This document shows, piece after piece, positions 102-39,036 of a DNA stretch of 39,764 nucleotides. Made by a program: the position numbers and the translations under genes. How positions within the stretch are numbered: the first letter of the stretch is position 1; each line of letters starts with the position of its first letter. The notes below the pieces were generated by a model. It was not told the DNA's origin. It saw only the letters and a program-made list of their open reading frames with translations, and searched no databases. Origin of the DNA: a virus; UHGV virus genome UHGV-0145637; one strand, given 5' to 3'.

Positions 102-185
102 TGAGCGCTTAAAGTCTATTTGATATCGATTGTGCAATAATTAATCGTTTATTCTAAAATCGGCAAAACTTTTGATACTGCGATC
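102..185. repeat. Left-end region with putative transposase-binding repeats (attL-like)
   Basis: TTTGATAT at 118-125 and TTTGATAC at 171-178 are the reverse complement of GTATCAAA motifs repeated three times at the right end. Confidence 0.45.
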
Positions 186-256
186 TCAACTTTTTAAAGC
201 GTTTAAAACTTCATTAAATCTATATGGCAACTAACATACGGGCCAGCCTCGCCAAA

Positions 257-787
257 CTAACCCGCTTTAGATTCTACCGGATTTGATTGCCTACTTGTCT
301 CGGTTTTTTCCAAAATCTCTCTGACGCAATCGTCTGGCATATCTACAATCATCAACGCAGCCAGGCGCTTCCTGCCTTCTAGTTGTAATAAATCTTGGTT
401 TTCTTTATTCAGCAGTGTCAGAACCGTCTCTACACCTTTGCGAGCAAGGAGATTGGTTAACTGTTCTCGTTCGTCTTTCGTAAGGAATGAAAGCATCTGT
501 GTAAGCTGATCTCCCTTATCACCAGAACAACCAAAATTACCATAAATACCAATATCGTTTGGTAATTCACCCTTGCCCTCTTTAAGCCACTCAAGACTAA
601 CGCCTTCACTTTCAGAAATTCGTATAAGGATACTTTCTCTGGGGGCTGGTTGTGTTTGTCCTCCCTTGAAATAGCTGTTTAATGTGTTGATATTGATTCC
701 CCACGCTCTGGCAGCTGCACTTCTTGAAGGGTAGCGCTTTGTAAGCATTCCAATACGTTCAATAACAGGTTCTTTTCCCTGCGACAT
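257..787 (-). CDS. Prophage repressor with HTH, in the position of Mu c
   Basis: Leftward ORF just left of ner. HTH-like stretch AAARAWGININTLNSYFKGG. Start taken at MSQGKEP with AAGAGG RBS upstream; the track ORF extends further but lacks an RBS. Confidence 0.6.
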   Translation of the reverse strand: MSQGKEPVIERIGMLTKRYPSRSAAARAWGININTLNSYFKGGQTQPAPRESILIRISESEGVSLEWLKEGKGELPNDIGIYGNFGCSGDKGDQLTQMLSFLTKDEREQLTNLLARKGVETVLTLLNKENQDLLQLEGRKRLAALMIVDMPDDCVREILEKTETSRQSNPVESKAG

Positions 788-977
788 AAAGATACCTCTT
801 GGTGCTTTTCTAAGGAAAGGTTTCTTTCTATTTATCCAATTGAAAAATAAGGATAAAAGCAAAAATTAGCCAAAATACCAAAAATACCTTGATTTGGTAT
901 TTTTGGTGATGCATTATTTACCCGTACAGATATCCGCACGAATATCCGCGCGGGTAACTTTTTAGAATAGAGGAAGT
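788..977. promoter_or_regulatory. Divergent repressor/early promoter-operator region
   Basis: AT-rich intergenic region with inverted repeat ACCAAAAATACC...GGTATTTTTGGT and tandem ATATCCGC repeats; position matches Mu Pe/Pc operators. Confidence 0.5.
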
Positions 978-1226
978 ATGAGTAGAAGAGAAGTTTCAGA
1001 TCACGATTGGCCGCCTGAAATCATCAAGGCGCGCTTACACATGGCTGGCTTATCACTGCGCTCTTTATCTTTAAAGGCTGGTTACAGCAGGGATTCGCTG
1101 AAAAGCGTATTACGTACTCCTTGCCGACCGTATCAGCAAATAATTGCTGATGCTCTTGGGGTATCACCTGAAGAAATCTGGCCCAGTCGATACCAGGTTA
1201 AGAGCTATATGAGAAAGGCGTCATGA
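978..1226 (+). CDS. ner: Ner-like DNA-binding early regulator (Ner/Nlp family)
   Basis: 82 aa; motifs ...LSLRSLSLKAGYS... and QQIIADALGVSPEEIWPSRYQ closely resemble Mu Ner as recalled; lies immediately upstream of the transposase gene. Confidence 0.85.
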   Translation: MSRREVSDHDWPPEIIKARLHMAGLSLRSLSLKAGYSRDSLKSVLRTPCRPYQQIIADALGVSPEEIWPSRYQVKSYMRKAS

Positions 1227-1227
1227 T

Positions 1228-3318
1228 ATGTATGTCATTGCAAAAGAACTGATTGGCGCGCCCGGAATGCCTGCTACAACAAAAGGTATTCGCCAGGCAT
1301 TACAACGTTACGTACAAGGGAAAAGCTGTTGTTCCCGTCGTCGCTCAGGCTCTAAAGCAACTGAATACAGCATCGACTGTTTACCTGAAGTGACGCAGCA
1401 GGCATTACGTGAACGCTACGCCCTGCAACTGATGACGCAAAAAGCCGATGAATCACCGGCTCCGGTGGTGACAAAGGCCAGACGCTCACCTGCCGTGGTT
1501 GATGCGGTGGAGGCATATCGCGGATCACCCCAACTGATGGTCGAACGCCTCAATGCCCTGACTGAAAACCAACGTAAAGTGGCAGAGGCACGAATAGCGA
1601 TCGTCAGCGAGGTGCTGAAAATCGCGCAACAACCCGGCTTTAGTTGCGCTAAGGCTATCCGGTTCCTCGTTAACAGCCTGGCACGATCACAACTGGACGA
1701 GCGCATTGTGGCAATGGTTGAGACGGCGAACGCCAAAAAGGGAAACAGCCGCGCGTTGAGTGAAATCACGCTGAAACGCTGGATTGCGGCCTTTAACAAG
1801 GCACAGAACGCCGCTGAACGCCTGCTTTTACTGGCACCGGGTAAACGCCAGGAAATAAAAGCCGAAGATATTAACTGGCTGCCCGAATTTCTGGCGCAGT
1901 ATCGCCAGTCAAACGGCCGACCAATGACCGAGGCTTACGAGGATTTTGTTGCTGAATGGCAGCACCGGCACGCTGATGAGCCTTATATGCTCGATATCAT
2001 GCCCTCTTATGACACCATTCGCCGCGCAATGAAGAAACTGCCGGAAGTGGTGAAACAAAAAGGCCGGGTAACTGGCAGTGAATACCGTCAGCTTGAGGGA
2101 TTCACGCGCCGCGACTGGTCCAGAATGCCGGTGAATTATGTCTGGATTGGTGACGGTCACGGCATGAAGCTGAAATGCGCGCACCCGGTTCACGGGCGGC
2201 CATTCGCACCGGAAGTGACCTTTGTTATCGACGGTGGCACGCGCTTTGTGGTGGGCTGGAGCCTTGACCTGGCTGAAAATGTTTTCGCCGTAGCCGGTGC
2301 CATACAGCACGGTATTCGCCATCATGGCAAACCGTTTCTGTATTACTCGGATAATGGCTCCGGGGAAACCGCCGACGTCCTGGATAAGGAGATTGTGGGG
2401 ATACTGCCACGACTGGGGATTAATCACCCGACAGGGATTGCCGGTAATCCGCAGGGACGGGGCATTATCGAACGGCTTAACCGCACATTACCGATGCGCA
2501 TAGCCCGTAAATACCGCACCTATTTCGGGAAAGGAGCAGATCGCGAGACGTTACGTAAAACCAACCGCGATTTACGCTCGGCATTCAGTGCCCTGCAACA
2601 GGGCAAACGGCTGAACGCCCGGCAGCAGTCAGCGATGCGTGATTTACCGTCCTGGTCTGAACTGATTGATGCCATTCGTGACGGTGTTGAGTGGTACAAC
2701 AACCGGCCGCACGATGAATTACCCATGAAGCCGAACGGTAAACATTACAGCCCGGCGGAGTTCAGAAAAAAACGCCTGGCGGAAGAGGACACGGAAATTG
2801 AATGGCTGTCCGATGTTGAACTGCGGGATATGTTCCGGCCGATGGTGGAGCGCCCTGTAAGACGCTGTGAAATACGCTGGCTGAATAATATTTACTACGC
2901 GCCCGAGCTGCGTGACGAGCATGGCCGTAAGGTACTTATCAGCTATGACATTCATGATGCCGAACGAATTACCGTGCGCCGCCCGGATGGCAGCGTGATT
3001 TGCGAGGCGGTATGGGACGGCAATAAACGCGAAGCCTTCCCTGTCAGCGCGGAATACTACAAACAGCAGCAGCGCCTTAAAGGCATGCGTAAACGCGCAG
3101 AGGAAAAAATCCGTGATGCCGAGGATGAGGTTGTCAACGTGCTGGAGCACAAGCCGCAGGAGCCCTGGCTGGAAAACATATACCGCCCTGTGGGTAATAC
3201 GGTGACCGTTCAGCAACCGGTCGCTGACGATGAACCTGATGAAGAATACGAGCGTAATTTCCAGCGGGGATTGCAACTGCTCGAAGCGAAATTAAAAGAA
3301 AGTGATCCGCTGGCCTGA
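1228..3318 (+). CDS. A: Mu-type DDE transposase A
   Basis: 696 aa (Mu A is 663 aa); position after ner and before the B ATPase; start overlaps ner stop. Confidence 0.85.
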   Translation: MYVIAKELIGAPGMPATTKGIRQALQRYVQGKSCCSRRRSGSKATEYSIDCLPEVTQQALRERYALQLMTQKADESPAPVVTKARRSPAVVDAVEAYRGSPQLMVERLNALTENQRKVAEARIAIVSEVLKIAQQPGFSCAKAIRFLVNSLARSQLDERIVAMVETANAKKGNSRALSEITLKRWIAAFNKAQNAAERLLLLAPGKRQEIKAEDINWLPEFLAQYRQSNGRPMTEAYEDFVAEWQHRHADEPYMLDIMPSYDTIRRAMKKLPEVVKQKGRVTGSEYRQLEGFTRRDWSRMPVNYVWIGDGHGMKLKCAHPVHGRPFAPEVTFVIDGGTRFVVGWSLDLAENVFAVAGAIQHGIRHHGKPFLYYSDNGSGETADVLDKEIVGILPRLGINHPTGIAGNPQGRGIIERLNRTLPMRIARKYRTYFGKGADRETLRKTNRDLRSAFSALQQGKRLNARQQSAMRDLPSWSELIDAIRDGVEWYNNRPHDELPMKPNGKHYSPAEFRKKRLAEEDTEIEWLSDVELRDMFRPMVERPVRRCEIRWLNNIYYAPELRDEHGRKVLISYDIHDAERITVRRPDGSVICEAVWDGNKREAFPVSAEYYKQQQRLKGMRKRAEEKIRDAEDEVVNVLEHKPQEPWLENIYRPVGNTVTVQQPVADDEPDEEYERNFQRGLQLLEAKLKESDPLA

Positions 3319-3400
3319 AATAAAAAAATAACCCGAGGGGTGACTCAGGTTATTTGAGGTTTCAGTCTCGGAGAATGCTGTCTCAAGCGAGGTGAATAAT

Positions 3401-4333
3401 ATGACCGATATTAACGATGTAATCAAGACCATTGATGAACTTATTGATGGCGGCGTACTGACGCAGTATGCCATCGCCAGAGAGGCGGGAATTTCCGACG
3501 GCACATTATCGGCTTTCCGTAAGGGAAAATATAAAGGCGATAACGCTGCTGTGGCTGCTTCCCTGCGCTCCTGGTATGAGAACTGGAATAAACAAAGCGC
3601 ACTGCCGGAACCGCCGCAGTTTGTGGAAACTCAGACAGTCCAGGAGCTGCGCGCACTGTTTCAGGCGGTTCGCCTGATGGGCTGTATTAACGTTATTGTG
3701 GGCGTACCGGGTGTGGGTAAAACGGCCACTGCCCGTAATTACTGCCAGGAGCAACCAAACACCTGGATGATCACCCTGTCACCCGCGCACTCCAGCGTCA
3801 CGGAGTGTCTGCTGGAGCTGGCCGATGCGCTGGGGATTGATTACACCCGCGCGAACAAAGGGGCATTATCCCGCGCCATCCGCCGTCGCCTGATGGGAAC
3901 GCGTGGACTGGTGATTGTGGATGAGGCGGATCATCTTGGTATTGACGGTCTGGAGCAACTCCGGGCAATTCAGGACGCCACGGGGATCGGGATGGTGCTT
4001 ATTGGTAACCCGCGCGGATTGTTTAAAGGTGGACGCCGCGCCTTTGATGATTTATCGCGCCTGTTCAGCCGTCTTGCCCGTACAAAACAACTTCGCAAGG
4101 CCAAAAAGGCGGATGTGCTGGCCATTGCCATGGCGTGGGGGATCAGTGGTGAGGCCGAGCTGGCCGTCATGCAGGCTATCGCTGAAAAGCCGGGAGCGTT
4201 ACGCGTTCTGACACATACGCTTAACCAGGCGTGGCTCACCGCCAGCGGTGAAGGCGCGGCGCTGACAGAAAAACATATTAATGCGGCCTTTAAAGAGGTT
4301 TATACCAACCCTGAATTACTCTCACAGGTGTGA
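3401..4333 (+). CDS. B: Transposition ATPase / target DNA activator B
   Basis: Walker A GVPGVGKT; N-terminal HTH; overall resemblance to MuB as recalled; GAGGTG RBS 7 nt before the ATG at 3401. Confidence 0.85.
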   Translation: MTDINDVIKTIDELIDGGVLTQYAIAREAGISDGTLSAFRKGKYKGDNAAVAASLRSWYENWNKQSALPEPPQFVETQTVQELRALFQAVRLMGCINVIVGVPGVGKTATARNYCQEQPNTWMITLSPAHSSVTECLLELADALGIDYTRANKGALSRAIRRRLMGTRGLVIVDEADHLGIDGLEQLRAIQDATGIGMVLIGNPRGLFKGGRRAFDDLSRLFSRLARTKQLRKAKKADVLAIAMAWGISGEAELAVMQAIAEKPGALRVLTHTLNQAWLTASGEGAALTEKHINAAFKEVYTNPELLSQV

Positions 4334-4335
4334 TT

Positions 4336-4557
4336 ATGGCGGTATTTAATATTCCTGATATTTACGGACGCTTTTACTTGGTTAATTTCGATAACGTGAA
4401 GGTGATTTCACTGGCCGAAAATAAAGAATGTGGCGATTTACTTTTTGAATTTAATGACCGCACACGAATGGTGATATCTGCCGGACTTGATCGCGAAGGT
4501 GCGACAGAAGTTTACAGCGGAATATGCCGTTCTGTTGGTGCGAAACAAGTCAGCTAA
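4336..4557 (+). CDS. Small early protein, 74 aa, in the position of Mu kil
   Basis: ORF directly after B, AGGTG RBS; function assigned by position only. Confidence 0.4.
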   Translation: MAVFNIPDIYGRFYLVNFDNVKVISLAENKECGDLLFEFNDRTRMVISAGLDREGATEVYSGICRSVGAKQVS

Positions 4558-4569
4558 ATGAGGTGTTAT

Positions 4570-4824
4570 ATGAATATGCAATCCTGCGGTAACAAAATGA
4601 ATTTATTCGACTCCCTGAACAGCGCGCGCCGTCTGACCGAACTTGCCGGTGCGGTACTGGAACGCAGTAAGCGCTATCCGCAACGTTTTGCACTGAAAAC
4701 CACGCCGCCGGTAGGCAACGTGCAGGGAACCGGTGAAATTGAAATCACCATACAGACCAACGGCCTGCGCCGCCGTGTGAAGGCCACCCGCATCAGCGGC
4801 TGCACGGTTTACTGGGAGGTGTGA
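4570..4824 (+). CDS. Hypothetical early protein
   Basis: ORF in early operon with RBS; no recognisable motif. Confidence 0.4.
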   Translation: MNMQSCGNKMNLFDSLNSARRLTELAGAVLERSKRYPQRFALKTTPPVGNVQGTGEIEITIQTNGLRRRVKATRISGCTVYWEV

Positions 4825-4825
4825 G

Positions 4826-5107
4826 GTGAAAAAAAATCTCATTGCATGGGCGTGGTCGAGTGGTCTTATTGAGTTTGGTTACGTCCTGCCGGAAGGTGCA
4901 TTGCCGATAGTTGCCGGAAAGCCTGCCACGGTACGGCATGTGATTGAGGTTATGGCGCGTCATGGACGTGATGAACAGGAGCAGTTACTGGTTCCGGGGA
5001 TACCGGAAGCGGTGACGGAGGAAGAAGCCTTTAATGCCATGATTCGGTTCTGCCGTGAGGTTAGACGCCGGGTCAGTTATCCAAACAGAACGAGGACCAG
5101 AGGATGA
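4826..5107 (+). CDS. Hypothetical early protein (GTG start)
   Basis: GGGAGGTG RBS before GTG; tightly packed with neighbours. Confidence 0.4.
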   Translation: MKKNLIAWAWSSGLIEFGYVLPEGALPIVAGKPATVRHVIEVMARHGRDEQEQLLVPGIPEAVTEEEAFNAMIRFCREVRRRVSYPNRTRTRG

Positions 5108-5376
5108 GTAAAGTCGTACGCATTATTTTCGAATACAAGGAAGATGTTATCTGCAAAAACTCTGATGGCAGCACGCACAGAGGGGTAAGTCTGGATATAC
5201 GTTCAACCGGAATAAAGAAGAAAGATAATGGACCCGCCATGATTTTTGGGGTGGTTATGCTGGCAGAAAGCAGAAACTTCGCAGAGTTTGTGGCAATGAA
5301 AGCCAGTGCATTCATGAAAGACAGAGGCATGGCTTCCGGGGTTATTAACGGTAATGAATTTAATCAACAGGGGTAA
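5104..5376 (+). CDS. Hypothetical early protein, paralogue 1
   Basis: Starts MSKVVRIIFEY; paralogous to the next gene (MSKVRVIFEF). Confidence 0.45.
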   Translation: MSKVVRIIFEYKEDVICKNSDGSTHRGVSLDIRSTGIKKKDNGPAMIFGVVMLAESRNFAEFVAMKASAFMKDRGMASGVINGNEFNQQG

Positions 5377-5380
5377 TTCC

Positions 5381-5674
5381 ATGAGCAAAGTACGCGTTAT
5401 TTTTGAATTTAATCATGTTTCGCATGACGAAAAGTTGGCAGGCAATGACTGTGTTGAAGTGCATGAAAAGATTGGAGTGGATGTGAAAACAGAACGTGAT
5501 ACGGATAACAGGCCGACGTCACTCTGTGACGTTTATGCAAGTATTCTCCAGTATCACAGTCCTGCAATTATTCAGTTTCTCTCAGCGGAATTTCAGGCAT
5601 CTGCACAGTCTTTTGGAGCGGATGCCATCATTAAACGCCACCGCGTGCATAAAGCATCAGGCACACTGCAATAA
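5381..5674 (+). CDS. Hypothetical early protein, paralogue 2
   Basis: Start taken at the internal MSKVRVIFEF, matching the N-terminus of the preceding paralogue. Confidence 0.45.
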   Translation: MSKVRVIFEFNHVSHDEKLAGNDCVEVHEKIGVDVKTERDTDNRPTSLCDVYASILQYHSPAIIQFLSAEFQASAQSFGADAIIKRHRVHKASGTLQ

Positions 5675-5685
5675 GGAAAAACAAA

Positions 5686-6216
5686 ATGGCTAAACGCGTT
5701 ACAAAATTAAAGGCCGCAGCCGAGGCGGCACCGCAGACCCGGGAAGAAGTCAGCCGTGATATCCGCACCCTGGGAGATATTCAGCGAGAGGCGCTGCGCC
5801 TGGAAACGGCGATGAATGACGAAGTGGCAGAAATCACCGCCCGTTATACGCCGCAGATTGAAAATCTTAAAAAGCAAATCAAAGTGCTTTTTAAAGGGAT
5901 TCAGGACTGGTGCAAAACCAACCGTGATGAGCTGACGAACGGCGGCAAAACCAAAACAGCCAATCTGACCACCGGAACGGTGTCATGGCGGCTGGGAACG
6001 CCATCATGCAGCGTCAGCCGTGATGTGGAAGGTGTGATTGAAATGCTGCGCCGTATGGGGCTTGAGCGTTTCATCCGCACGAAAGAGGAAGTGAACAAGG
6101 AAGCCGTCCTGGCGGAGCCGGATGCTGTGAAAGGCATTGCCGGTATCAAGGTGAATAAAGGCGCTGAAAGTTTTTATGTCGAGCCTTTTGAACAGGACGC
6201 CGGACTGAATAAATAA
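5686..6216 (+). CDS. gam: Gam-like host-nuclease inhibitor (DNA end-binding)
   Basis: 176 aa; conserved stretches RDELTNGGKTKTANLTTGTVSWR and LERFIRTKEEVNKEA match Mu Gam as recalled. Confidence 0.85.
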   Translation: MAKRVTKLKAAAEAAPQTREEVSRDIRTLGDIQREALRLETAMNDEVAEITARYTPQIENLKKQIKVLFKGIQDWCKTNRDELTNGGKTKTANLTTGTVSWRLGTPSCSVSRDVEGVIEMLRRMGLERFIRTKEEVNKEAVLAEPDAVKGIAGIKVNKGAESFYVEPFEQDAGLNK

Positions 6217-6361
6217 CACCACATTAATCAATTAAATATCACTTCATTTTAATTATGGCGCTCGCGTCAGGGGACTGCTTGCGCCTGAAAACAGAAAATA
6301 AGGGTTAAGAAATATGAAATACGTTTATATCGTCATTAATAATGTGGTGGGGAAATAAATC

Positions 6362-7410: not shown

Positions 7411-7413
7411 TGC

Positions 7414-8638: not shown

Positions 8639-8653
8639 GCAGGCAGGTGAATA

Positions 8654-9334: not shown

Positions 9335-9398
9335 ATCGATACCTTTAGTTTTATCCGGGCGGCGTTGCCATGCCGCCTGTTGTTACGGAGACACGATA

Positions 9399-9911: not shown

Positions 9912-9919
9912 CCCCAAAC

Positions 9920-9946
9920 CCCGCCACAGCGCGGGATTTTTATTTT
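9920..9946 (+). terminator. Rho-independent terminator after gemA
   Basis: Stem CCCGC / GCGGG with 6-nt loop, followed by ATTTTTATTTT. Confidence 0.6.
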
Positions 9947-16551: not shown

Positions 16552-17866
16552 TTTAGGTTATGCCGCCACGCTTCCCTCAAAAGAGGCGGTAGCATACTTC
16601 CGTGTCAAAGGGGCGCATATCAGCTGGAACTGGTTCGAAACAGCCGCGGATGTTCATGCCCGCTCATTCACGGCAGCAAAAGCGGCACGCCTGGATGTGG
16701 TGACCACGTTACAGGCCGAAGTGCAGCGGGCCATTGATGAGGGAATTTCACAGAAAGCATTTATCCGCACGCTGACGCCACGCCTGCAAAAGCTGGGATG
16801 GTGGGGAAAGCAGATTGTGGTGGACAGCGACGGTAACGCGGAAGAAGTGCAACTGGGCAGTCCCCGTCGTCTGGCGCTGATTTACAACGTGAACACCCGG
16901 GTGGCTTACAATGCCGGGCGTTACACGCAGATGATGAACAACACGGACACGCATCCGTTCTGGCAGTATGTGGCGGTCATGGACAGCCGTACCCGCCCGT
17001 CGCATTCCGCCCTTAACGGTCTGGTATTCCGCTATGACGATCCGTTCTGGAAAACACACTACCCACCTAATGGCTGGAACTGCCGCTGCCGTGTGCGGCC
17101 ATTGTCTCAGGCTCGTCTGGATGCAATGGGGTTATCCGTTTCATCCGGTGAGGATCATCTCTCCACCCGCAATGTTGAGGCTGGCGTGGATAAACAGACC
17201 GGAGAAGTCAGAGAAATGCCGGTGACCACATATTCAGATGGCACCAGAACCATGACACCGGATGTGGGCTGGTCATATAACCCCGGCTCGGCAGCGTTCG
17301 GCACAGACCAGGCGCTGATCCGCAAACTGATCGAGGTGAAAAGCCCGGCGTTACGGGAAATGGTGGTTCAGGAGATGAACAACAGCCCGGAGCGGCAGCT
17401 GGCGTTCCGCATCTGGGCAAAAAACATCATGCAGACCCGGCGAGGTGGTAACGATATCCGCACGCTGGGCTTTATGACTGAAAGCATTGCGCAGGCAGTG
17501 GAAAGCCGGACGGGAACGCCACCGGCCCGCCTGCTGGCGATGAGCGGTAAAAATGTGCTCCATGCAGACAGTGTGAAACATCAGAATGACGGCATCGCCC
17601 TGATGCCAGAGGACTTCGGGCGCTTACCGGCAATGCTGGCAAAGCCAAAAGCGGTGCTGTGGGACAAACGGCACAAAAATCTGATGTATATCGTGGAAAA
17701 TAAGGATGGCAGTGTGCAGATTGCCGTTAATGCACCGTACAGTCTGAAACGTCAGCCCGACAAACTGGATGTGATTGTGAATGCTTACCGGGTTATCAAT
17801 ATGGATAAGCTGAAATCGGATATCCGGGGCGGAATGCTTGAGGTGCTGGAAGGACAAATTGATTAA
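16535..17866 (+). CDS. Head morphogenesis protein (Mu F-like)
   Basis: 443 aa following portal, as in Mu. Confidence 0.7.
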   Translation: MTQGIDLGYAATLPSKEAVAYFRVKGAHISWNWFETAADVHARSFTAAKAARLDVVTTLQAEVQRAIDEGISQKAFIRTLTPRLQKLGWWGKQIVVDSDGNAEEVQLGSPRRLALIYNVNTRVAYNAGRYTQMMNNTDTHPFWQYVAVMDSRTRPSHSALNGLVFRYDDPFWKTHYPPNGWNCRCRVRPLSQARLDAMGLSVSSGEDHLSTRNVEAGVDKQTGEVREMPVTTYSDGTRTMTPDVGWSYNPGSAAFGTDQALIRKLIEVKSPALREMVVQEMNNSPERQLAFRIWAKNIMQTRRGGNDIRTLGFMTESIAQAVESRTGTPPARLLAMSGKNVLHADSVKHQNDGIALMPEDFGRLPAMLAKPKAVLWDKRHKNLMYIVENKDGSVQIAVNAPYSLKRQPDKLDVIVNAYRVINMDKLKSDIRGGMLEVLEGQID

Positions 17867-17987
17867 CGGTCAGTGGCGGGGGTCGAACCCGCATACATGA
17901 TCCACCCGGAGGCAGGCACCGACTTTACCAGTTAAGCGTACACTGACCGCCTGTTTATTTTATATTCATCCTTTATGCGGAGGCAAT

Positions 17988-18461
17988 ATGTCATCCATTG
18001 ATGCCGCTGTCGTTGTTGACGTTACGCGTCTCCAGCGGGTGTTTGCCCGGCTTCAGTTTGTGGGCGGCGGAAAAGACCTGGCCCGCAGTGTGGCGGAGAG
18101 TCTTCTGTCATCGTCAGAAATGGCGTTTGAACAGGAAAAAGAGCCGGACGGCGAACGCTGGCATGACTGGTCAGATCCTTACCGCAAGTGGCGTACCCGT
18201 AAGGGATACACGCCCGGCAAAATCCTGACACTGAACGGCGATCTGGCCCGCCGCCTGACCACGGATTATGGCGATACCTGGGCGCTGATTGGATCAAATG
18301 AACCTTATGCGGCCATTCATCAGTGGGGTGGCCTGCCTGGTATGCCACCGGGACCGGCGGCCATTGGCGCACGTCCGTATATGGGCTTTGATCAGGTGGC
18401 AGAACAGGAGATCATGGACGAAATCAGAAAACGCTTTAAAAAGGCCACAGAAACGCCGTAA
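17988..18461 (+). CDS. Virion morphogenesis protein (Mu G-like)
   Basis: 157 aa; position between F-like and I-like genes. Confidence 0.6.
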   Translation: MSSIDAAVVVDVTRLQRVFARLQFVGGGKDLARSVAESLLSSSEMAFEQEKEPDGERWHDWSDPYRKWRTRKGYTPGKILTLNGDLARRLTTDYGDTWALIGSNEPYAAIHQWGGLPGMPPGPAAIGARPYMGFDQVAEQEIMDEIRKRFKKATETP

Positions 18462-18638: not shown

Positions 18639-19763
18639 ATGAAGACGAAAAACACGCCCAAACTTGCTTATGCCATTCTGAATGCCATCAGCCTGTCCGC
18701 AGACGGGGACGGTGACTGGTGTCAGATCATGCCAGCCGGTCGGGTAAAGGCCCGTGACGGTCGCCCGGAAAAACCGGCGGAAGGCTGGCTGATTAACCAT
18801 GCGGCCGTTGAGCGCATGGTATCCCGGGTTGTGGCGCTCAATCAGCCGGTAAAAATTGACTACAACCACCAGACCCTGATTAAGGGGCATCCGGCACCGG
18901 CTGCCGGTTTTGTCATGGCCTCACCGGAAAACTTCCGCTTCAGTGAAGAGCGGGGTTTTGAAGTGCGTCCGGACTGGAACCCTCCGGCCATTGAACACCT
19001 GCGCAATAACGAATTTCCCTGGTTTTCCCCGGTGATTGGTTATGACGAAATCACCGGTGAACCTGTTGAGCTTCGGATGCTGGCTATTACCGGTGACCCC
19101 GGTCTGACTGGCATGAATCCTGTCGCCGCACTGTCGGCGGATGACCTTTATAACGCCTTAAACCCTCCTTTAAAGGACACCTCCATGAATGAGCAATTAC
19201 GCCAGTTGCTGACGGCGCTCGGTCTGACCGTGGCCGACGGTGACGAATTTACACCGGAACTGGGCACGGCGGCGCTGTCTGCCCTTACCGGGATCAAAAC
19301 CCGTGCGGATGCGCACGACACCCTGAAAACGCAGGTTGCCAGCCTGTCGGCAGAGCTGGAAACCGCAAAAGGCACACCAACTGGCGGCACTATTGATCTG
19401 ACGAAATACGTGCCCGTTGAGACGTATAACGCCCTGCGTACCGAATATGTCGCGTTGTCGGCACAACACGGCAGCACCACGCTGGAGCAGTTGCTGGATA
19501 AGGCCGAGTCCGAAGGACGCATTTTCAAAAGCGAACGCGGATACATGGAAGGACTCGGACAACAGATTGGTGTTGCGGCACTTTCTGCACAGCTTGACGC
19601 CCGCCAGCCGGTTGCGGCTCTGACCACTCTTCAGACCGACACCGTAACCGTGCCGGATAAAAAGACCGCCACCGCTGCGCTGTCGGCTGAAGATATCGCC
19701 GCCGCCCATCTGCTGGGTAAAACCGAAGCCGAGTTCCTGAAAATGAAAGAGGAAATGCAATAA
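18639..19763 (+). CDS. Head protease/scaffold protein (Mu I-like)
   Basis: 374 aa directly upstream of the major head gene; Ala-rich C-terminal half typical of scaffold region. Confidence 0.7.
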   Translation: MKTKNTPKLAYAILNAISLSADGDGDWCQIMPAGRVKARDGRPEKPAEGWLINHAAVERMVSRVVALNQPVKIDYNHQTLIKGHPAPAAGFVMASPENFRFSEERGFEVRPDWNPPAIEHLRNNEFPWFSPVIGYDEITGEPVELRMLAITGDPGLTGMNPVAALSADDLYNALNPPLKDTSMNEQLRQLLTALGLTVADGDEFTPELGTAALSALTGIKTRADAHDTLKTQVASLSAELETAKGTPTGGTIDLTKYVPVETYNALRTEYVALSAQHGSTTLEQLLDKAESEGRIFKSERGYMEGLGQQIGVAALSAQLDARQPVAALTTLQTDTVTVPDKKTATAALSAEDIAAAHLLGKTEAEFLKMKEEMQ

Positions 19764-20710
19764 TGCCTACCCCGATCACACCGGCGATGATCACCGCCCT
19801 GATGACGGGCTACCGTTCTGATTTTCAGGCCGGGATGTCCATGGCTCCGTCTCAGTACCAGAAAATTGCGATGACCGTACCGTCCACGTCGAAATCCAAC
19901 ACCTACGGCTGGCTGGGGCAGTTCCCGCAGTTCCGTGAGTGGATCGGCTCCCGCGTCATCGAGAAGATGAAAGCCTATGGCTACGCCATCGTGAACAAAA
20001 CCTTTGAAGGCACCGTTGCCATTAGCCGCGATGACTTTGAAGACGACAATCTTGGCATCTACTCCCCGTTGTTCCAGGAGATGGGGCGCGCTGCGGCGGC
20101 ACAACCGGATGAACTGGTCTTTGCTGCACTGCGTGATGGTCTGAATGCGGCCTGCTATGACGGCCAGAACTTCTTTGATACCGAACACCCTGTTTACCCC
20201 AAAGTGGATGGCTCCGGTGATGCACAGATGGTCAGCAATATGTTTGTGGCAAAAACCGGCTCTGTCGGTGCACAGGCGGATTACAGCGGCCCGGCCTGGT
20301 ATCTGCTTGACTGCTCCCGCGCGGTAAAACCGCTGATTTATCAGGATCGCCGCAAGGCCGAACTGGTTGCCCAGACAAAAGTCGATGAAGGCCGTGCGTT
20401 TACTGATAACGAGTTTGTGTTCGGTGCTTCCGCCCGTCGCAATGTGGGCTACGGCTTCTGGCAGATGGCCTACATGATGCAGTCACCGCTGACGCTGGAT
20501 GCGCTGTGGCACGGCTGGTCAGCCATGCGTGACTTTAAGGCTGACGGTGGCCGCAAACTCGGCATCAAACCCACCCATATTGTTGTCCCCACCTCGCTGG
20601 AAAAACAGGCGGTGCAGCTGCTGGAGCGCGAGCTGTTCGCGGACGGTAACACCACCGTCTCTAACGAGATGAAGGGCAAGCTGGAGCTGGTTGTCGCGGA
20701 TTATCTGTAA
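19763..20710 (+). CDS. Major head (capsid) subunit (Mu T-like)
   Basis: 315 aa, position after I-like gene. Confidence 0.75.
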   Translation: MPTPITPAMITALMTGYRSDFQAGMSMAPSQYQKIAMTVPSTSKSNTYGWLGQFPQFREWIGSRVIEKMKAYGYAIVNKTFEGTVAISRDDFEDDNLGIYSPLFQEMGRAAAAQPDELVFAALRDGLNAACYDGQNFFDTEHPVYPKVDGSGDAQMVSNMFVAKTGSVGAQADYSGPAWYLLDCSRAVKPLIYQDRRKAELVAQTKVDEGRAFTDNEFVFGASARRNVGYGFWQMAYMMQSPLTLDALWHGWSAMRDFKADGGRKLGIKPTHIVVPTSLEKQAVQLLERELFADGNTTVSNEMKGKLELVVADYL

Positions 20711-32921: not shown

Positions 32922-32930
32922 TGATATTCA

Positions 32931-32954
32931 GAAGGCCTTCCGGCCTTCTTTATT
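32931..32954 (+). terminator. Rho-independent terminator after the tail fibre gene
   Basis: 7-bp stem GAAGGCC / GGCCTTC, loop TTCC, followed by TTTATT; overlaps the stop of the convergent tfa gene. Confidence 0.6.
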
Positions 32955-33474
32955 ACTGTGGCTGCTCAGGCCATTTAATGGCGTTAAATTCAGCTTCTGT
33001 TTTAATGGCGGGTAGTTCCATTTTCTTCACCTGACTGATGTATGCCATCCATTGGGTAAGTGCTGCTCTGTCTTCATCGCTGATGGTGCCCAGTTGTAGC
33101 TCCGTTCTCCAGTCATTAATTTTTTCATATGCCTGATTAAGATATGACTGGCGCATTGCTTCCAGTTTTCTTGCGTAGTTAACCGGAATACGGGAGATTA
33201 TGCCATTATCAAACTTCCAGTTTCCTGAAATATCCGTGCCTTCAGGGAGTTCATCGACCTCAACCACAGAAAACCCCGCAGGATACAGCGCCGAGGCGTC
33301 CTGTGATATTGAGCAGATAACGCCGCTGTCAGGTGTTATGCAAAGTTTATATTTTTTGGTGAATAATGGCAGGGATTCGTAGAAATCCTTACCATCTTCA
33401 CTCTGGAAATACTGAACATTATTACCATATGGCATATTTTCAGGATAATAACGGGTTATATTTTTTAGTTCCAT
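32953..33474 (-). CDS. Tail fibre assembly chaperone (Tfa / U-like), inside the invertible segment
   Basis: 173 aa on the minus strand with AGGAGG RBS, directly downstream of the alternative fibre C-terminus; C-terminal ...AIKWPEQPQ resembles Tfa endings. Confidence 0.7.
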   Translation of the reverse strand: MELKNITRYYPENMPYGNNVQYFQSEDGKDFYESLPLFTKKYKLCITPDSGVICSISQDASALYPAGFSVVEVDELPEGTDISGNWKFDNGIISRIPVNYARKLEAMRQSYLNQAYEKINDWRTELQLGTISDEDRAALTQWMAYISQVKKMELPAIKTEAEFNAIKWPEQPQ

Positions 33475-33525
33475 AAAATCCTCCTGGAAATAAATCTGTT
33501 TTAAAATATATTATTTACTGACTAT

Positions 33526-33885
33526 TTATAACTGAGATACCGTAATCCATGTACCTCCGACTAATTTTTGCAGGGGTCTGAATGCTATAAAATCGTTTGA
33601 AGCATCAACTTTACTGTCAATCTGCAGGCCTGCCATAACATTACCGTACGCAGAGTAATATGCCCCACCGTACATTACCTGCCTGTTCTCTGCTCCCAGC
33701 CTGATATCCTGGATATATCGGGAATCCGCATCCTGCTGTGTTATACCAGAAGTGATGTTTATGTCCTGCGTCCCGTCAAAGGGAACCCCATTAATATTTC
33801 TTGGGGTGGCGAGTCTATTCGCGGCAACGGCGGTGCCGTCCGATGGCAGAGCATTCGCCGCCCTGTTTACCGTTTCCCGTAAACC
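33526..33885 (-). other. Alternative tail-fibre C-terminal cassette (S'v), start-codon-less
   Basis: Minus-strand frame is open for 119 codons from the crossover site ([17 protein letters not shown]... to ...GGTWITVSQL stop), in register with the fibre frame. Confidence 0.7.
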
Positions 33886-33899
33886 GAGGTTTTCAGGAA
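33760..33899. repeat. Right inverted repeat, with gix/hix-like crossover site at 33874..33899
   Basis: Reverse complement reads TTCCTGAAAACC-TC-GGTTTACGGGAA, sharing the half-site GGTTTACGGGAA and central TC with the left site. Confidence 0.75.
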
Positions 33900-33964
33900 A
33901 GCCAGGATTAACTCTGTTTTATTCCTCATGCGACAATTCCGGCTTTTTATAATAAGGAAATCGT

Positions 33965-34537
33965 ATGCTGATTGGGTATATCAGGGTGTCAACAAATGAC
34001 CAGAATACGGCGCTACAAAGAAATGCGCTGGAATGTGCAGGATGTGAGCTGTTTTTCGAAGACAGAATAAGCGGTAAGACAAGGGAGCGTCCCGGACTTA
34101 AACGCGCATTAAAGCGACTCCGGCCAGGGGATACCCTGCTGGTCTGGAAACTGGATCGCCTTGGACGCAGTATGCAGCACCTTGTCCTTTTAACAGAAGA
34201 ACTCCGGCAACGCGGCGTTAACTTCCGCAGCATTACGGACAATATTGATACATCCACTCCCATGGGACGTTTCTTTTTCCATATAATGGGCGCGCTGGCG
34301 GAAATGGAGCGGGAACTCATTATTGAACGTACACGCGCGGGTCTTGCTGCTGCCCGTGCTCAGGGGCGTCATGGCGGCAGACCTCAGAAACTGACAGAGA
34401 AAGAGCGGGAGCAAATCGCCCGTTTGCTGGCTAATGGCGAGTCCCGTAAACAAATCGCACTGATATTTGATATTGGCCTTTCCACCCTTTATCGTTATTT
34501 TCCTGCCTCACCAGCTCCGTCACCAAAAGTACCGTGA
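33965..34537 (+). CDS. gin: Serine recombinase DNA invertase (Gin/Hin/Cin/Pin family)
   Basis: MLIGYIRVSTNDQNTALQRNAL... with catalytic-serine motif and C-terminal HTH; near-colinear with Mu Gin as recalled. Confidence 0.9.
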   Translation: MLIGYIRVSTNDQNTALQRNALECAGCELFFEDRISGKTRERPGLKRALKRLRPGDTLLVWKLDRLGRSMQHLVLLTEELRQRGVNFRSITDNIDTSTPMGRFFFHIMGALAEMERELIIERTRAGLAAARAQGRHGGRPQKLTEKEREQIARLLANGESRKQIALIFDIGLSTLYRYFPASPAPSPKVP

Positions 34538-34622
34538 CGCTTTTTTGAATTTCCGCAAAACACATATTTTTCAGCGGTCGCTATTCTGACTCTGTTTAAT
34601 TCAGAAACAGGCAGAAAAGACG

Positions 34623-36677
34623 ATGTCAGACTCCAAGTGGAAAATGCTCTCCGCCATGCCCGGAGAGTTTTCAGTCAAGGTTGCCGGTGGCACGGTGGCA
34701 TTTATTGAAAGCCCTTTCCGCCCTTCGGGTAATAAAGGGGGGATCACCTTCGCAGACTGCGTGATCCGCTTCAGCACGAAAGAGCCATTATGGGTAATGC
34801 CGGTATCCGGTAATCCCAGTGCAGAAATCACCAGTTCAGGCGTGACTGGCATCATTCCAATCACATCTGACGTGGCCGGAACGCTCACGCCCTCCGACTG
34901 GAATGCACCGGATAACGCCGGGCCTTCCGGTAGCACGAATGGCAGCAGTTCAGAGCCGGAATATTACTTTGTTGTCATTCTCGCGGGTCAGTCAAATGGC
35001 ATGGCCTACGGCGAGGGGCTGCCGTTACCGGATTCGTTTGACCGCCCGGACCCACGCATTAAGCAACTGGCACGCCGCAGTACGGTAACGCCCAACGGTA
35101 CGTCGTGTACATACAACGACATCATTCCGGCAGACCACTGCCTGCATGATGTTCAGGATATGAGCGGGATAAACCACCCGAAAGCTGATCTGGCAAAAGG
35201 CCAGTACGGGACTGTCGGTCAGGGGTTGCATATTGCCAAAAAACTGCTTCCCTATATCCCACAGAATGCCGGGATACTTCTGGTGCCCTGTTGTCGTGGC
35301 GGGTCAGCATTCACCACTGGAGCCGACGGCTCATTCAGTGAGGCCAGCGGTGCTTCCGCTGATTCTTCACGCTGGGGGGCCGGTAAACCTCTGTATCAGG
35401 ACCTGGTAAGCCGCACCAAAGTCGCGCTGGCGAAAAACCCGAAAAACAAACTTCTGGCTGTGGTCTGGATGCAGGGAGAGGCAGACCTTGCCTCAGGAAG
35501 CCAGCAGCATAATAGTTTATTCACGGCCATGGTTCAGCAGTTCAGAACTGACCTGGCTCCGCTTGCTGCGCAGTGCGTGAGTGGAAATGCCACCACGGTG
35601 CCGTGGATTTGCGGTGATACCACGTATTACTGGAAAAACGCTGGCACCGATAAATATGAGGCAGTATACGGTGGCTACAAAGGCAAGGAAGCACAGAAAA
35701 TTTTCTTTGTACCGTTCCTGACGGATGAGAATGGACAGAGCACGCCAACGAATGCTCCGGCGGAAGACCCGGATATTGTGGCTGTCGGGTATTACGGTGC
35801 AGCATCCCGAACCCAGGGCAGTTTTGTTTCGACACAGCGTGACAGCCATTTCAGCTCATGGGCACGCAGGGGCGTCATTTCAGACCGTCTGGCCTCAGCT
35901 ATTATGCTCCATGCAGGGCGCACGGCTGAACTGATGCGCGGGCAGACCGTGACACCACCGGATGAGAAGCCGTCACCTGATACACCATCAAAACCGTCCA
36001 CGCCACCCGCAGACACCACGACGATGAGTACGCTATTTGCTTACCGGGCATCTGAGTCTGAAGGACGGTTGACACCACAGGGTTGGGCTGCCGGAGGTGG
36101 CAAGGCTCAAATCGTGGATGATGCCGGAGCCAGCGGGGGTAAGGCAATGAAACTGACCAAGGAAACAGGAAGAGCCCCCTGGTACCTTGAGCATGATGCT
36201 GGTAATGGTGCGGACCTGCTGGGTAAAGGTGGTCTTGTCAGTTGTCGTTTTAAACTCGATGGCGCGCTTACGGCTAATCAGTACGCACTGGCGCTGTACT
36301 GGCCGGTTTCTGCCCTGCCGCAAGGGGTTACTCTGGAAGGAAATGCCGGTCATAACCTGCTGGCATCGTTCTACGTACAGAGCGATGCCACAGACCTTAA
36401 CGTGATGTATCACAAAGGAAACACGGCGCAGAACACGAAGCTGGGGTCATTCGGCGCATTTAATAACGAATGGCATACGCTGGGCTTCCGTTTTGCCGGT
36501 AACAACAGTATTGAGGTGACACCGGTCATTGATGGTAAGGACGGGACACCATTCATGCTGTCGCAGTCTCCGGTCGGCACGTTTACGGCAGACAAGTTGC
36601 GCGTGACCGATATCACTAAAAATGCGACTTACCCGGTACTGATTGACAGTATCGTGGTGGAAGTGAATAACGCGTAA
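34623..36677 (+). CDS. SGNH-type (sialate-O-acetylesterase-like) esterase domain protein with Pro/Thr linker and C-terminal beta-rich domain
   Basis: Motifs VILAGQSNGMAYGEG and VVWMQGEAD; linker PPDEKPSPDTPSKPSTPPADTTT; about 210-aa C-terminal domain; no N-terminal signal peptide. Confidence 0.5.
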   Translation: MSDSKWKMLSAMPGEFSVKVAGGTVAFIESPFRPSGNKGGITFADCVIRFSTKEPLWVMPVSGNPSAEITSSGVTGIIPITSDVAGTLTPSDWNAPDNAGPSGSTNGSSSEPEYYFVVILAGQSNGMAYGEGLPLPDSFDRPDPRIKQLARRSTVTPNGTSCTYNDIIPADHCLHDVQDMSGINHPKADLAKGQYGTVGQGLHIAKKLLPYIPQNAGILLVPCCRGGSAFTTGADGSFSEASGASADSSRWGAGKPLYQDLVSRTKVALAKNPKNKLLAVVWMQGEADLASGSQQHNSLFTAMVQQFRTDLAPLAAQCVSGNATTVPWICGDTTYYWKNAGTDKYEAVYGGYKGKEAQKIFFVPFLTDENGQSTPTNAPAEDPDIVAVGYYGAASRTQGSFVSTQRDSHFSSWARRGVISDRLASAIMLHAGRTAELMRGQTVTPPDEKPSPDTPSKPSTPPADTTTMSTLFAYRASESEGRLTPQGWAAGGGKAQIVDDAGASGGKAMKLTKETGRAPWYLEHDAGNGADLLGKGGLVSCRFKLDGALTANQYALALYWPVSALPQGVTLEGNAGHNLLASFYVQSDATDLNVMYHKGNTAQNTKLGSFGAFNNEWHTLGFRFAGNNSIEVTPVIDGKDGTPFMLSQSPVGTFTADKLRVTDITKNATYPVLIDSIVVEVNNA

Positions 36678-36821
36678 GCAGGATAAAAAAATGCCGCCGG
36701 TAAGGGAAAACAAGAAACCGGCGGCAAAAAGATCGTTATATCCAAAGCAAAAAATGCAGTGCACCTTTTTACCTAACAGATATTACCGGTGTCAACACCA
36801 TGTCAATAATTGGGAGGGATA

Positions 36822-37004
36822 ATGACATTTTTACAGCTTATTTTATTGTATTTCTGCACGGCAGTATGTGCGTTATATCTGGTGAGTGGTGGTTATAAGG
36901 CCATCAGAAATTATGTTCGCCGCAAAATTGAGGACGCAGCAGCTGAAAAACTCAGTAAAACAGCGCAGGTAACTCCGCTCCCAAAAGACCCGACCCAGCC
37001 CTGA
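36822..37004 (+). CDS. Small membrane protein, 60 aa
   Basis: GGGAGGG RBS 5 nt before ATG; MTFLQLILLYFCTAVCALYLV hydrophobic helix then charged tail. Confidence 0.45.
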   Translation: MTFLQLILLYFCTAVCALYLVSGGYKAIRNYVRRKIEDAAAEKLSKTAQVTPLPKDPTQP

Positions 37005-37039
37005 TTGCAGGGCTTTATTCCCGCATAAGGAGGATATAC

Positions 37040-37294
37040 ATGCCAGAAATTAAAGGCACCGTCACTGAAGACCTGGTAAAACAGGCACTGTATTCCGGTG
37101 AAGTAAATAAGTTGCTGAAAGCGCAGGTCCGCAAGGATTTTGAGGCACAAATCGACACTTACGTTGATGAAGTGCTGGCAAAACTTATTGGGCCAGCAGT
37201 TGCGGCCAGTGATGCTGATAATGAGCCGAAAACCGACGCGCAGCCAGAGCAACCAGACCCGGCTCAGCCCGGAACTGACAGTACCATGATGTAA
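37040..37294 (+). CDS. Small acidic hypothetical protein, 84 aa
   Basis: Strong AAGGAGG RBS; acidic Pro-rich C-terminus; hairpin AAACCGG...CCGGTTT downstream. Confidence 0.5.
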   Translation: MPEIKGTVTEDLVKQALYSGEVNKLLKAQVRKDFEAQIDTYVDEVLAKLIGPAVAASDADNEPKTDAQPEQPDPAQPGTDSTMM

Positions 37295-37461
37295 CAATAC
37301 AAACCGGTGGTGTCCTCTGCCGGTTTGACACTAATGAAAACATCTTTGCCGCTATCCAGCCATATGTAATCGCTGGATAGTATTTCGTATTCAGAAATAT
37401 AGCTGCTTATGGAGCAGTCAATCCTGCTTCCCCATCCGGGCAGGCAAATGAACCGGTATCA

Positions 37462-37755
37462 TTAGTCCGATTCACGCTTTTGTAGAATCGTTCCCAGAAT
37501 GCTATACAGCTCATTAGCCTGTTGCTCCATCATTGAGACGGAGGCTATACGGTGCAAAGTGATTTCAGGAGGTGGCACACCTCCATCTTCTTGCTGTGGA
37601 GGAAAAACATAAGATTTAATAAAAAAGTTGAAGCATATGAACTCTCCCGCACTCGAACTGTATTTGCAGGCATCTGAATAATCGGAAAAATAATCATTAT
37701 AGATTTCCGCATTTTCAATCATTTTTCGATTTCTCGTCGTTACATGATTGTCCAT
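37462..37755 (-). CDS. Hypothetical protein, 97 aa, antisense to neighbours
   Basis: TAAGAGG RBS, AT-rich, divergent from com-mom across a 255-bp AT-rich region. Confidence 0.45.
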   Translation of the reverse strand: MDNHVTTRNRKMIENAEIYNDYFSDYSDACKYSSSAGEFICFNFFIKSYVFPPQQEDGGVPPPEITLHRIASVSMMEQQANELYSILGTILQKRESD

Positions 37756-37877
37756 AGCAGCCTCTTACGCTGGCAATTAACCAATTGACTTCTATAAATT
37801 AGTTGATTTGTTTGCTTTGCGGTATTCAAATGTACAATCATTCAGCACTTATGCGTTACAGCACCGTTTAAAATTAG

Positions 37878-37964
37878 TGATCAAACTCATAAATTTTCGC
37901 TAATGACATTTCGTGTTATTTGTTGTATCAATTAAATAAATCAAATCGATCGTTTTTGTCGATC
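37878..37964. promoter_or_regulatory. GATC cluster with inverted repeat upstream of com-mom
   Basis: GATC at 37878, 37948 and 37961; the last two lie in the palindrome AATCGATCG-TTTTTGT-CGATCGATT, about 50 bp before the com start. Confidence 0.5.
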
Positions 37965-38011
37965 GATTGAGTGATAAAGATATCAACAACAAAGCAGGAG
38001 GTTATGCGGCC

Positions 38012-38212
38012 ATGTATCGAAACATACGGTGCCGACATTGTAACAAGCTACTGGCACGAGCCAGCTTCAGTTATCTGGAAGTTAAATGTCCGCGCTGTAA
38101 AACCCTCAATCAAATCACATCTCAGAGCGCCACAGAGCACCCCACATACACAAGGAAATCCTGTCGTGGGGAACAGAAAGCAAGTTACATCCCGTATCAT
38201 CAGCACGCCTGA
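38012..38212 (+). CDS. com: Com zinc-finger translational activator of mom
   Basis: [10 protein letters not shown]...EVKCPRCK matches the Mu Com zinc finger as recalled (IRCKNCNKLL...IRCPRCK); GCAGGAGG RBS; start at the internal Met of the track ORF. Confidence 0.8.
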
Positions 38213-38903
38213 ACTTATTCACTATAACGACAATATCGTCGGTTATGGCTCCCGTGAGTTACGGGTTGAGACAATAAGTTGCTGGCTGGCCCGGCTGGTC
38301 GTCGTCAATAAACATTACAGCCATCGTTTCGTAAATAATTCCTACCTTCATCTGGGCATATTTTCAGAACGGGAGCTGGTTGGCGTAATGCAATGGGGTT
38401 ATGCCCTTAATCCAAACAATGGTGCACGCGTCGTAACTGGCACGCAGAACCGCGAATATATGGAGCTTAACCGGTTATGGCTGCATGACTGTATGCCGAG
38501 AAACTCCGAATCAAGGGCAATCAGTTACGCGCTCAAACTAATCAGACAACTTTATCCGCAGGTGCAGTGGGTTCAGTCGTTTGCAGATGAGCGTTGTGGC
38601 TGTCTTGGTGTCGTGTACCAGGCAAGCAATTTTGATTATGTAGGCAGTCATGAAACAACATTCTATGAACTTGATGGCGAGTGGTATCACGAGATTTGCA
38701 AGAATGCAATCAAACGAGGAGGACAGCGAGGTGAACATCTGCGGGCTAATATCGACAGAGCCAGTGTTCATAAATTCCGTCAGTTTCGTTACATCCGGTT
38801 TCTGGACAAGAGAGCCAGAAAACGCCTTAACACAAAGCTATTCAAAGTCCAGCCTTACCCAAAACCACAAACAGTTAAAACTGGTTTGAAAGAGAGTGAA
38901 TGA
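38166..38903 (+). CDS. mom: Mom-like DNA modification protein
   Basis: 246-aa frame beginning inside the 3' end of com (GTG at 38166 with AGGAAA upstream), as in Mu; assigned by position and size only. Confidence 0.55.
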
Positions 38904-38944
38904 ACGCTTAAAAACTCATTCTAAAACTCAAAAGAAAAGCGCCG

Positions 38945-39036
38945 ATTTAGTATCAAATAAGTTGCGTATCGGCGTTTTTCAGCGGTATCAAATGAAATGC
39001 AAATCGGTATCAAAAAAATCGCCGCGCTATAATACA
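38945..39036. repeat. Right-end region with three GTATCAAA repeats (attR-like) and putative terminus ...TAATACA
   Basis: GTATCAAA at 38950, 38985 and 39007; reverse complement of the terminus begins TGTATTATAGCG. Confidence 0.5.

Follow-up and report, generated by a model that had tools for sequence, protein, structure and literature searches.

The described system closest to the element considered here is Sp18 of E. coli O157:H7 Sakai, together with the Sp18-like phages of Shiga-toxin-producing and other E. coli (e.g. Mu_JNE082796, LC727881). These phages insert at variable loci (PMC7430833, PMC10132054), and Sp18 itself is reported to be efficiently packaged without circularisation (PMC2669165). 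For the wider group of transposable phages, a survey of 2021 recorded only two lengths of target duplication, 5 bp in the Mu type and 6 bp in the B3 type, and found TG-CA tips in all Mu- and B3-like phages described before, the new exception being the TA-TA prophages of Leptospira (PMC8705779). The stretch analysed here, UHGV virus genome UHGV-0145637, comprises 39,764 nt at full length, adapters included, and is called the window below. It is very probably a Nextera-library contig, with untrimmed adapters at both ends, of a nearly whole Sp18-type Mu-like transposable phage of E. coli. We establish the adapters, the two termini of the phage, the layout and conservation of its terminal sites, the 4-bp duplication that accompanies its insertion, and its junction with the host gene nrdD.

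On nucleotide comparison the phage is a further member of the known Sp18 group of E. coli Mu-like phages. A prophage of the human E. coli isolate NZ_OZ547136.1 shares 99.1% identity with it over the 25 kb compared, and for the Mu-like phages that sit within Stx phages (LC727881, LC727895) the figure is 93%, across 90-94% of 20 kb. With Sakai Sp18 and the Sp18-like phages (93-99% nucleotide identity) it shares the gene order, the termini TGTAACCAGG...CGCCGCGCTATA, the six terminal sites and the 4-bp duplication; it differs from them in that the copy in the window lacks the first 48 bp, in a junction with nrdD found in none of the genomes searched, and in minor accessory genes near the right end.

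Adapters and phage termini

Both extremities of the window are Illumina sequence, which the earlier note on this DNA does not mention. Compared with the Nextera adapters as printed in PMC3906532, positions 1-54 show one mismatch, at nt 24, and the biological insert left after adapter removal is 55-39735; the adapter bases 1-54 and 39736-39764 are accordingly to be excluded from any call of contig-end features. The full phage genome measures 39,025 bp, of which the contig begins 48 bp short of the left tip, and it extends 704 bp past the right tip into nrdD.

An earlier note on this DNA had placed the left end of the phage at position 102 and had taken the 47 bp before it (55-101) for a host flank. 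This reading fails, since these bases are conserved at unrelated loci: window 55-130 recurs with 98-100% identity in over 200 complete genomes of E. coli, at many chromosomal loci and in some genomes several times. Integrated copies in a JAB-domain gene and in rhsD are the same as the window from 55 on and continue upstream through 48 further common bp, TGTAACCAGGTGAATCATTTGATACCAACGAGGGTTTTAGTGAAAGGA, parting company only outside them, beyond TGTAACC. In integrated copies the left tip thus reads TGTAACCAGG..., and 24 distinct left flanks all end exactly where TGTAACC starts, a boundary that recurs in four whole prophages, Sakai Sp18, a bglJ insertion, an insertion in an Stx1 phage, ten IMG/VR contigs and the nine flanks obtained by looking up the repressor. 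That exact repressor protein occurs in 4448 blocks of a public collection; the ten places listed show nine distinct left flanks, none of them nrdD, and in all ten the flank starts 298 bp beyond the repressor stop codon. In every integrated copy examined 55-101 is internal to the phage, 48 bp in from the tip, and the outermost 48 bp, with the terminal site L1, are not in the window. Because integrated copies share these further 48 bp, the window is without any left host flank; the contig stops within the phage, at a tagmentation site 48 bp from the left tip.

At the right end, the sequence ...GGTATCAAAAAAATCGCCGCGCTATA closes all 16 Sp18-type ends in IMG/VR (flank sequence is available for 15) as well as six fetched prophage copies, and unrelated flanks follow it. 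The point of divergence immediately follows GCGCTATA, which in the window is position 39031, and the right ends of diverged relatives also lie 17 nt outside site R1. The match to nrdD begins exactly at 39032, where intact nrdD reads ...CCGGATACATGCGC... or ...CCGGATACATGCGCTTGC..., and continues to 39735; alignment to the host confirmed the earlier description of this flank as nrdD-like, with a match to nrdD in every one of the 5426 complete genomes of E. coli, at up to 99.7% identity. A right end at 39036 was considered and rejected: the first BLAST matches reaching 39035 or 39036 were chance extensions among the top-ranked ones, the paired junctions, together with 25 right ends, point to 39031 as the terminus, and the call at 39036 had included five host bases, ATACA. 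The nrdD flank is a genuine transposition junction, with insertion at nt 1086 of the gene.

Alignment with other Mu-like phages therefore did not uphold the ends first proposed, and both termini were reset. The suspicion of misplaced end calls, which the earlier note had itself voiced, was well founded on either side, and its two discordant host flanks reduce to one, on the right.

Origin of the nrdD flank

Headful packaging of Mu starts near its left end, which leaves roughly 50-150 bp of host DNA to the left of the phage in the virion and 0.5-3 kb to the right. The contig probably derives from virion DNA that was packaged by the same process, starting at the left, so that host DNA would sit at its right end as the nrdD flank. 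The make-up of the contig fits tagmented virion DNA, in which coverage fades near the ends of the molecules: there is an adapter at both ends, the left tip is missing, and 704 bp of a single-copy gene follow the right tip. An analogous case is the GenBank 'complete genome' of the Yersinia phage Tongde (MT591577.1), nt 1-522 of which are host glyS abutting a right terminus of the same kind. The other end of that record carries an insertion sequence (IS)-like ATP-binding gene, host or IS sequence that is uninformative on the left tip. Of the proposal that the window holds virion-packaged DNA with heterogeneous host flanks, packaging is thus plausible for the 704 bp of nrdD, whereas the supposed left host flank is phage DNA. 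On this reading the virions may have come from a lysogen whose resident prophage sat in nrdD. All cells of such a culture share the flank of the resident site, which could account for a single clean flank in place of a mixture.

The flank could instead be ordinary chromosome, the sequenced material being total DNA of a lysogen with the prophage stably resident in nrdD. This, the main rival account, is possible, though we consider it doubtful. A single clean flank sequence joined exactly at the terminus is what such a lysogen would give, and phages of the Sp18 type are common residents of E. coli chromosomes. A chromosomal contig, however, should run for kilobases through nrdD and likewise on the left, whereas this one ends in adapters, 704 bp out on one side and 48 bp inside the phage on the other. 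Moreover, no genome among the 5426 complete ones of E. coli contains the junction (a query spanning it is covered to 92% at best), and viral and JGI metagenome contigs gave no match to it. The two accounts partly overlap, since a virion origin of the DNA would be compatible with nrdD as the resident site.

Much less probable than either is that the join of phage and nrdD is a chimeric assembly or a library artefact, as the earlier note had also suggested. Adapters left untrimmed before assembly do betray loose data handling, and with the end called at 39036 the pentamer ATACA seemed common to phage and nrdD. This overlap, entertained as a sign of chimerism, vanishes with the terminus at 39031, where nothing is common to the two. 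The join falls, to the base, on a terminus that is independently defined and common to 25 independent right ends, a coincidence with a random chance of about 1 in 39,000, and this strongly argues against an assembly chimera.

Target duplication and tip dinucleotides

Phages of the Sp18 type duplicate 4 bp of their target and not the 5 bp of Mu. In each of nine insertions for which both junctions are available, exactly 4 bp are repeated (TAAG, GTAT, GATA, AATT, TAAA, GTAC, AGAG, AGAA and AACA), and the fifth base agrees leftward in one and rightward in two of the nine pairs, which is the chance rate. The comEC gene of strain 90-3040 provides an empty-site test: its two flanks, joined with a single AATT, match intact comEC at 300 of 300 positions in one ungapped piece. 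The depositors of LC727881 and LC727895 in GenBank likewise annotate 4-bp repeats as 'duplication due to insertion of Mu_JNE...'. A and T make up 75% of the nine duplicated targets, and the more than 25 distinct insertion flanks seen include many unrelated sites.

Duplications of 5 or 6 bp with shifted tips were tried on every pair and rejected. That the family duplicates 5 bp as Mu does, the 4-bp pattern having arisen from tips placed one base off, is accordingly very improbable. The values in the literature (5 bp for the Mu type, 6 bp for the B3 type; PMC8705779) would favour it, and the fifth base does match in three of the nine pairs if one terminal phage base is counted as target. No single shift of an end, however, yields 5 bp in more than two of the nine pairs, neither shift suits six of the pairs, AATT stands only once in the empty comEC site, and the annotation of 4 bp by the GenBank depositors is independent of ours.

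Applied to the window, the 4-bp rule leads us to expect ATAC as the duplication at the nrdD insertion; the predicted left junction is nrdD...CCGGATAC followed by TGTAACC, that is, ...CAGGATATCCGGATAC followed by TGTAACCAGG. The earlier note was right that no 5-bp duplication can be found, and the reason is now evident: with no left junction in the window, and with a family that duplicates 4 bp, such a search was bound to fail. The pentamers it compared, CTGGA and TGCGC, are indeed the letters at 97-101 and 39037-39041, but neither position is a true end. That the 47 bp and the nrdD sequence are two real host flanks from different loci on heterogeneous virion DNA, a notion to which their sizes (47 and 704 bp, resembling host DNA on Mu virions) lent some colour, is refuted by the conservation of the 47 bp in more than 200 genomes at unrelated loci and by their place inside every integrated copy examined. 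The mismatch between the two flanks results from untrimmed adapters, a contig 48 bp short and wrong end calls, not from biology, and should not be counted as evidence of chimerism or of unusual packaging.

The phage begins with TG at its left tip, and every Sp18-type copy ends in TA on the right, so that the 5'-TG...CA-3' tips of Mu-like phages are not found here. In relatives that likewise end 17 nt outside R1, the right tip reads ...CTACA in two contigs (the canonical CA), ...CTTTA in the Yersinia type and ...CTATA in the Sp18 type. This distribution indicates that TA is a lineage variant of the canonical CA end, with a change from CA to TA within this clade. The IMG/VR contigs 2890520432_000010 and 2836850911_000005 combine the same R1-R2-R3 layout with a canonical ...GCGCTACA-3' right tip.

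In our literature search we found no paper discussing a 4-bp duplication in Mu-like phages; the supplements of the CC119 paper make no mention of it, and the paper on the Yersinia phages (PMC10434027) does not discuss the ends. The 4-bp duplication is already on record in GenBank feature tables, while a paper describing the TTTGATAY sites, the putative 4-nt stagger and the TA tip was not found.

Several records can be read against these termini. The RefSeq feature 'prophage Sp18' (NC_002695.2 5040971-5079729) starts one base inside the true left tip and overshoots the true right one by five bases, namely the complete right repeat copy TAAA and one further base; the Sakai element is thus 38,755 bp long, not 38,759. 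In the record of vB_YpM_5 (MT374853.1), likewise a GenBank 'complete genome' and marked circular, the tips are joined via about 87 bp of unrelated sequence (4646-4732). Finally, the chromosomal copies in JKHS016, JMF1 and DLI.5a are decayed elements of 32, 16.5 and 19.4 kb, with internal inversions, deletions and an IS903B insertion. They retain both tips and the 4-bp repeats, from which it follows that the rearrangements came after insertion.

Terminal sites, transposition genes and relation to Mu

The octamer GTATCAAA occurs five times in the whole window against 0.95 expected, a number reached in none of 100 shuffles; three of them are found at the right end and one at the left, and a lone one is internal. 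The earlier note had described three motifs at the right end, which are confirmed on the plus strand at 38950, 38985 and 39007, and two reverse-complement copies at the left, of which that at 171-178 is exact while that at 119-126 is TTTGATAT, with one mismatch; the true terminal left copy, L1, falls within the 48 bp outside the window. The internal copy (20174-20181, minus strand, inside the open reading frame of the major head protein, 19763-20710) is most likely coincidental, given the 0.95 expected by chance.

On the left end as reconstructed, with the 48 bp restored from integrated copies, the TTTGATAY cores start 18, 113 and 165 nt from the left tip; those at the right end start 18, 40 and 75 nt from the right tip, and all six share the same inward orientation. 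For the CGAAA core of Mu the corresponding distances are 22, 127 and 167 nt on the left, and 22, 44 and, for an inverted copy, 57 nt on the right. Five other copies, among them the DLI.5a variant with its diverged immunity region, have the sites at identical positions, and the cores are invariant in the Yersinia pestis phages while the spacers differ. Invariant cores among diverged spacers are the pattern expected of functional protein-binding sites, and binding by the transposase is the probable explanation. There is no CGAAA core within 240 nt of either phage tip and no TTTGATA in the ends of Mu, which bears out the earlier statement that the ends do not follow the MuA-binding consensus; the distinct specificity of transposase for ends that was deduced from it is a sound inference from the different core and from a transposase only 22% identical to MuA. 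A scan of species-representative genomes gave no match to a degenerate R1-R2 pattern or to a 30-mer from the left tip.

Between L1 and L2 lies a 12-nt inverted repeat, which is kept in the DLI.5a variant but not in the Yersinia phage vB_YpM_5, whose L1-L2 spacer resembles that of Mu itself; the repeat could possibly be a binding site for a packaging protein or a host bending protein.

The transposition genes place the phage in the Mu-like family, with a MuA-family DDE transposase adjacent to a MuB-like AAA+ target-delivery ATPase, and with late genes also present in the insert. In the transposase, Mu-transpos_C scores 63 bits (cut-off 21.7; E = 2e-17) and HTH_Tnp_Mu_1 28.5 bits (cut-off 23.3). 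The protein aligns with MuA over its full length at 22% identity (E = 9e-11), D309 and D375 being aligned to the catalytic D269 and D336 of MuA, and our own reading of the alignment would make E415, in the motif GRGIIER, the third catalytic residue. Identity is about 30% to the D3112/DMS3 type, 41% to Klebsiella phage Kp4852-3 and 47% to Pseudomonas phage VW-6B.

With Mu the phage has in common the order of repressor, ner, A and B at the left, the invertase, and com and mom at the right. It also shares three sites per end with a long L1-L2 spacer, two inner left sites and a 22-bp R1-R2 spacing, as well as random insertion and, probably, host DNA on virion ends. It differs in the sequence of its transposase, in the TTTGATAY core where Mu has a CGAAA-containing consensus, in the single orientation of all right-end sites (the third right site of Mu is inverted), in a duplication of 4 bp instead of 5, and in a right tip of TA instead of CA. 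Similarity to Mu DNA is limited to about 70% over some 600 bp, and the marks of Mu in the strict sense, a CGAAA consensus at L1-L3 and R1-R3 and a 5-bp duplication, are absent. Closer are the Yersinia pestis phages vB_YpM_5 and vB_YpM_6 (PMC10434027), with a transposase gene 81% identical at the DNA level. In these and in Tongde, TTTGATAC cores stand at 18, 40 and 75 nt from the right tip, as here; the tip is TA in Tongde and would be the same in vB_YpM_5 and vB_YpM_6. They differ in their terminal bases, ...GCGCTTTA, in a Mu-like L1-L2 spacer and in an L2 shifted by about 9 nt. The Pseudomonas phages of the D3112/DMS3 and B3 types are likewise transposable, with a DDE transposase and an ATPase, the D3112/DMS3 transposase being nearer than MuA; their hosts and their ends are others, and B3 duplicates 6 bp.

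In the proposed mechanism the 696-aa transposase and the MuB-like ATPase would act on both phage ends. The transposase would recognise the three inward TTTGATAY(CG) sites of each end. It would join the left-end strand by its ...TTACA-3' terminus and the right one by ...CTATA-3' to target strands staggered by 4 nt, a stagger that repair or replication would turn into the 4-bp duplication; insertion would be near-random, with A/T-rich targets. We are inclined, by a little, to regard the Sp18-type transposases as a separate working class, which would be defined by the TTTGATAY site, a stagger of 4 nt in place of 5 or 6, and a 3'-TA right tip that is tolerated or preferred.

Some observations weigh against the account given here. 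The single clean 704-bp flank is unlike the fully heterogeneous flanks of packaged DNA, unless one site dominates; the predicted left nrdD junction is absent from all collections searched (complete E. coli genomes, viral contigs and JGI metagenome contigs); BLAST left the third catalytic residue of the transposase unaligned; and both the binding of transposase to the six sites and the 4-nt stagger are deduced from sequence.

Table 1. Coordinates of the features of the window, with the basis for each assignment
Feature	Positions	Strand	Basis or remark
Illumina adapter, non-biological	1..54	.	P7 tail GGCATACGAGAT, 8-nt index CTAGTACG, Nextera read-2 transposase adapter
Inner part of phage left end (phage nt 49-172)	55..178	+	Includes the 47-bp stretch 55-101; E. 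coli genome matches and integrated copies
12-nt inverted repeat GAAATCACCTGT / ACAGGTGATGTC, 16 nt apart	58..97 (arms 58-69 / 86-97)	.	L1-L2 spacer
Site L2 core TTTGATAT, candidate transposase-binding site	119..126	+	Phage nt 113-120; same position in five further copies, including the diverged-immunity variant
Site L3 core TTTGATAC, candidate transposase-binding site	171..178	+	Phage nt 165-172; invariant against the Yersinia phage left end
Repressor-position gene, 176 aa	260..787	-	Position matches Mu c; no Pfam family
Ner-like DNA-binding protein, 82 aa	978..1226	+	Pfam HTH_35, E = 2.5e-19
MuA-family DDE transposase, 696 aa	1228..3318	+	Pfam Mu-transpos_C and HTH_Tnp_Mu_1
MuB-like AAA+ transposition ATPase, 313 aa	3392..4333	+	Pfam Phage-MuB_C, 87 bits, E = 8e-25; AAA_22
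Mom-family DNA-modification open reading frame, last gene before right end	37971..38903	+	Pfam Mom, E = 1.6e-77, residues 96-298
Site R3 core, candidate (GTATCAAA on plus strand)	38950..38957	-	75-82 nt from right tip; invariant in Yersinia relatives
Site R2 core, candidate	38985..38992	-	40-47 nt from right tip; 22 bp from R1
Site R1 core, candidate	39007..39014	-	18-25 nt from right tip; same register as L1 at left tip
True right terminus CGCCGCGCTATA-3'	39020..39031	+	Tip ends TA, not CA; divergence of IMG/VR and prophage copies
Host flank, E. coli nrdD, 704 nt	39032..39735	-	Gene nt 383-1086 of 2139, open frame, two mismatches to strain AR_0085
ATAC, right copy of predicted 4-bp target duplication	39032..39035	+	4-bp rule from nine of nine paired junctions; left copy outside window
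Illumina adapter	39736..39764	.	Reverse complement of Nextera read-1 transposase adapter, exact over 29 nt

The remaining gene content offers a few side observations. An open reading frame of 684 aa (34623-36677) lies between the invertase and com/mom. PGAP assigns it a DUF6645 domain in relatives, where small genes for DUF1378 and DUF826 come next; the stretch is an accessory cargo region without counterpart in Mu. In two relatives PGAP marks a 'tRNA-OTHER' on the minus strand between head-morphogenesis and virion-morphogenesis genes (18243-18323 of the one stretch and 18219-18298 of that of strain 90-3040, equivalent to about 17866-17988 of the window); ARAGORN finds no tRNA anywhere in the window. 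The prophage of strain 90-3040 carries, after com, a DNA cytosine methyltransferase gene (38479-39531 of its stretch) where the window has Mom, which looks like a swap of the right-end DNA-modification module.

With exact termini and the 4-bp rule, prophages of the Sp18 type can be delimited to the base, while a tool that expects a 5-bp duplication and TG...CA tips will set the ends of these widespread phages wrongly. A relative of MuA that combines the site layout of Mu with another core, a putative 4-nt stagger and a tip other than CA provides a natural comparison for the determinants of stagger length and tip specificity in transposition complexes of the Mu type.

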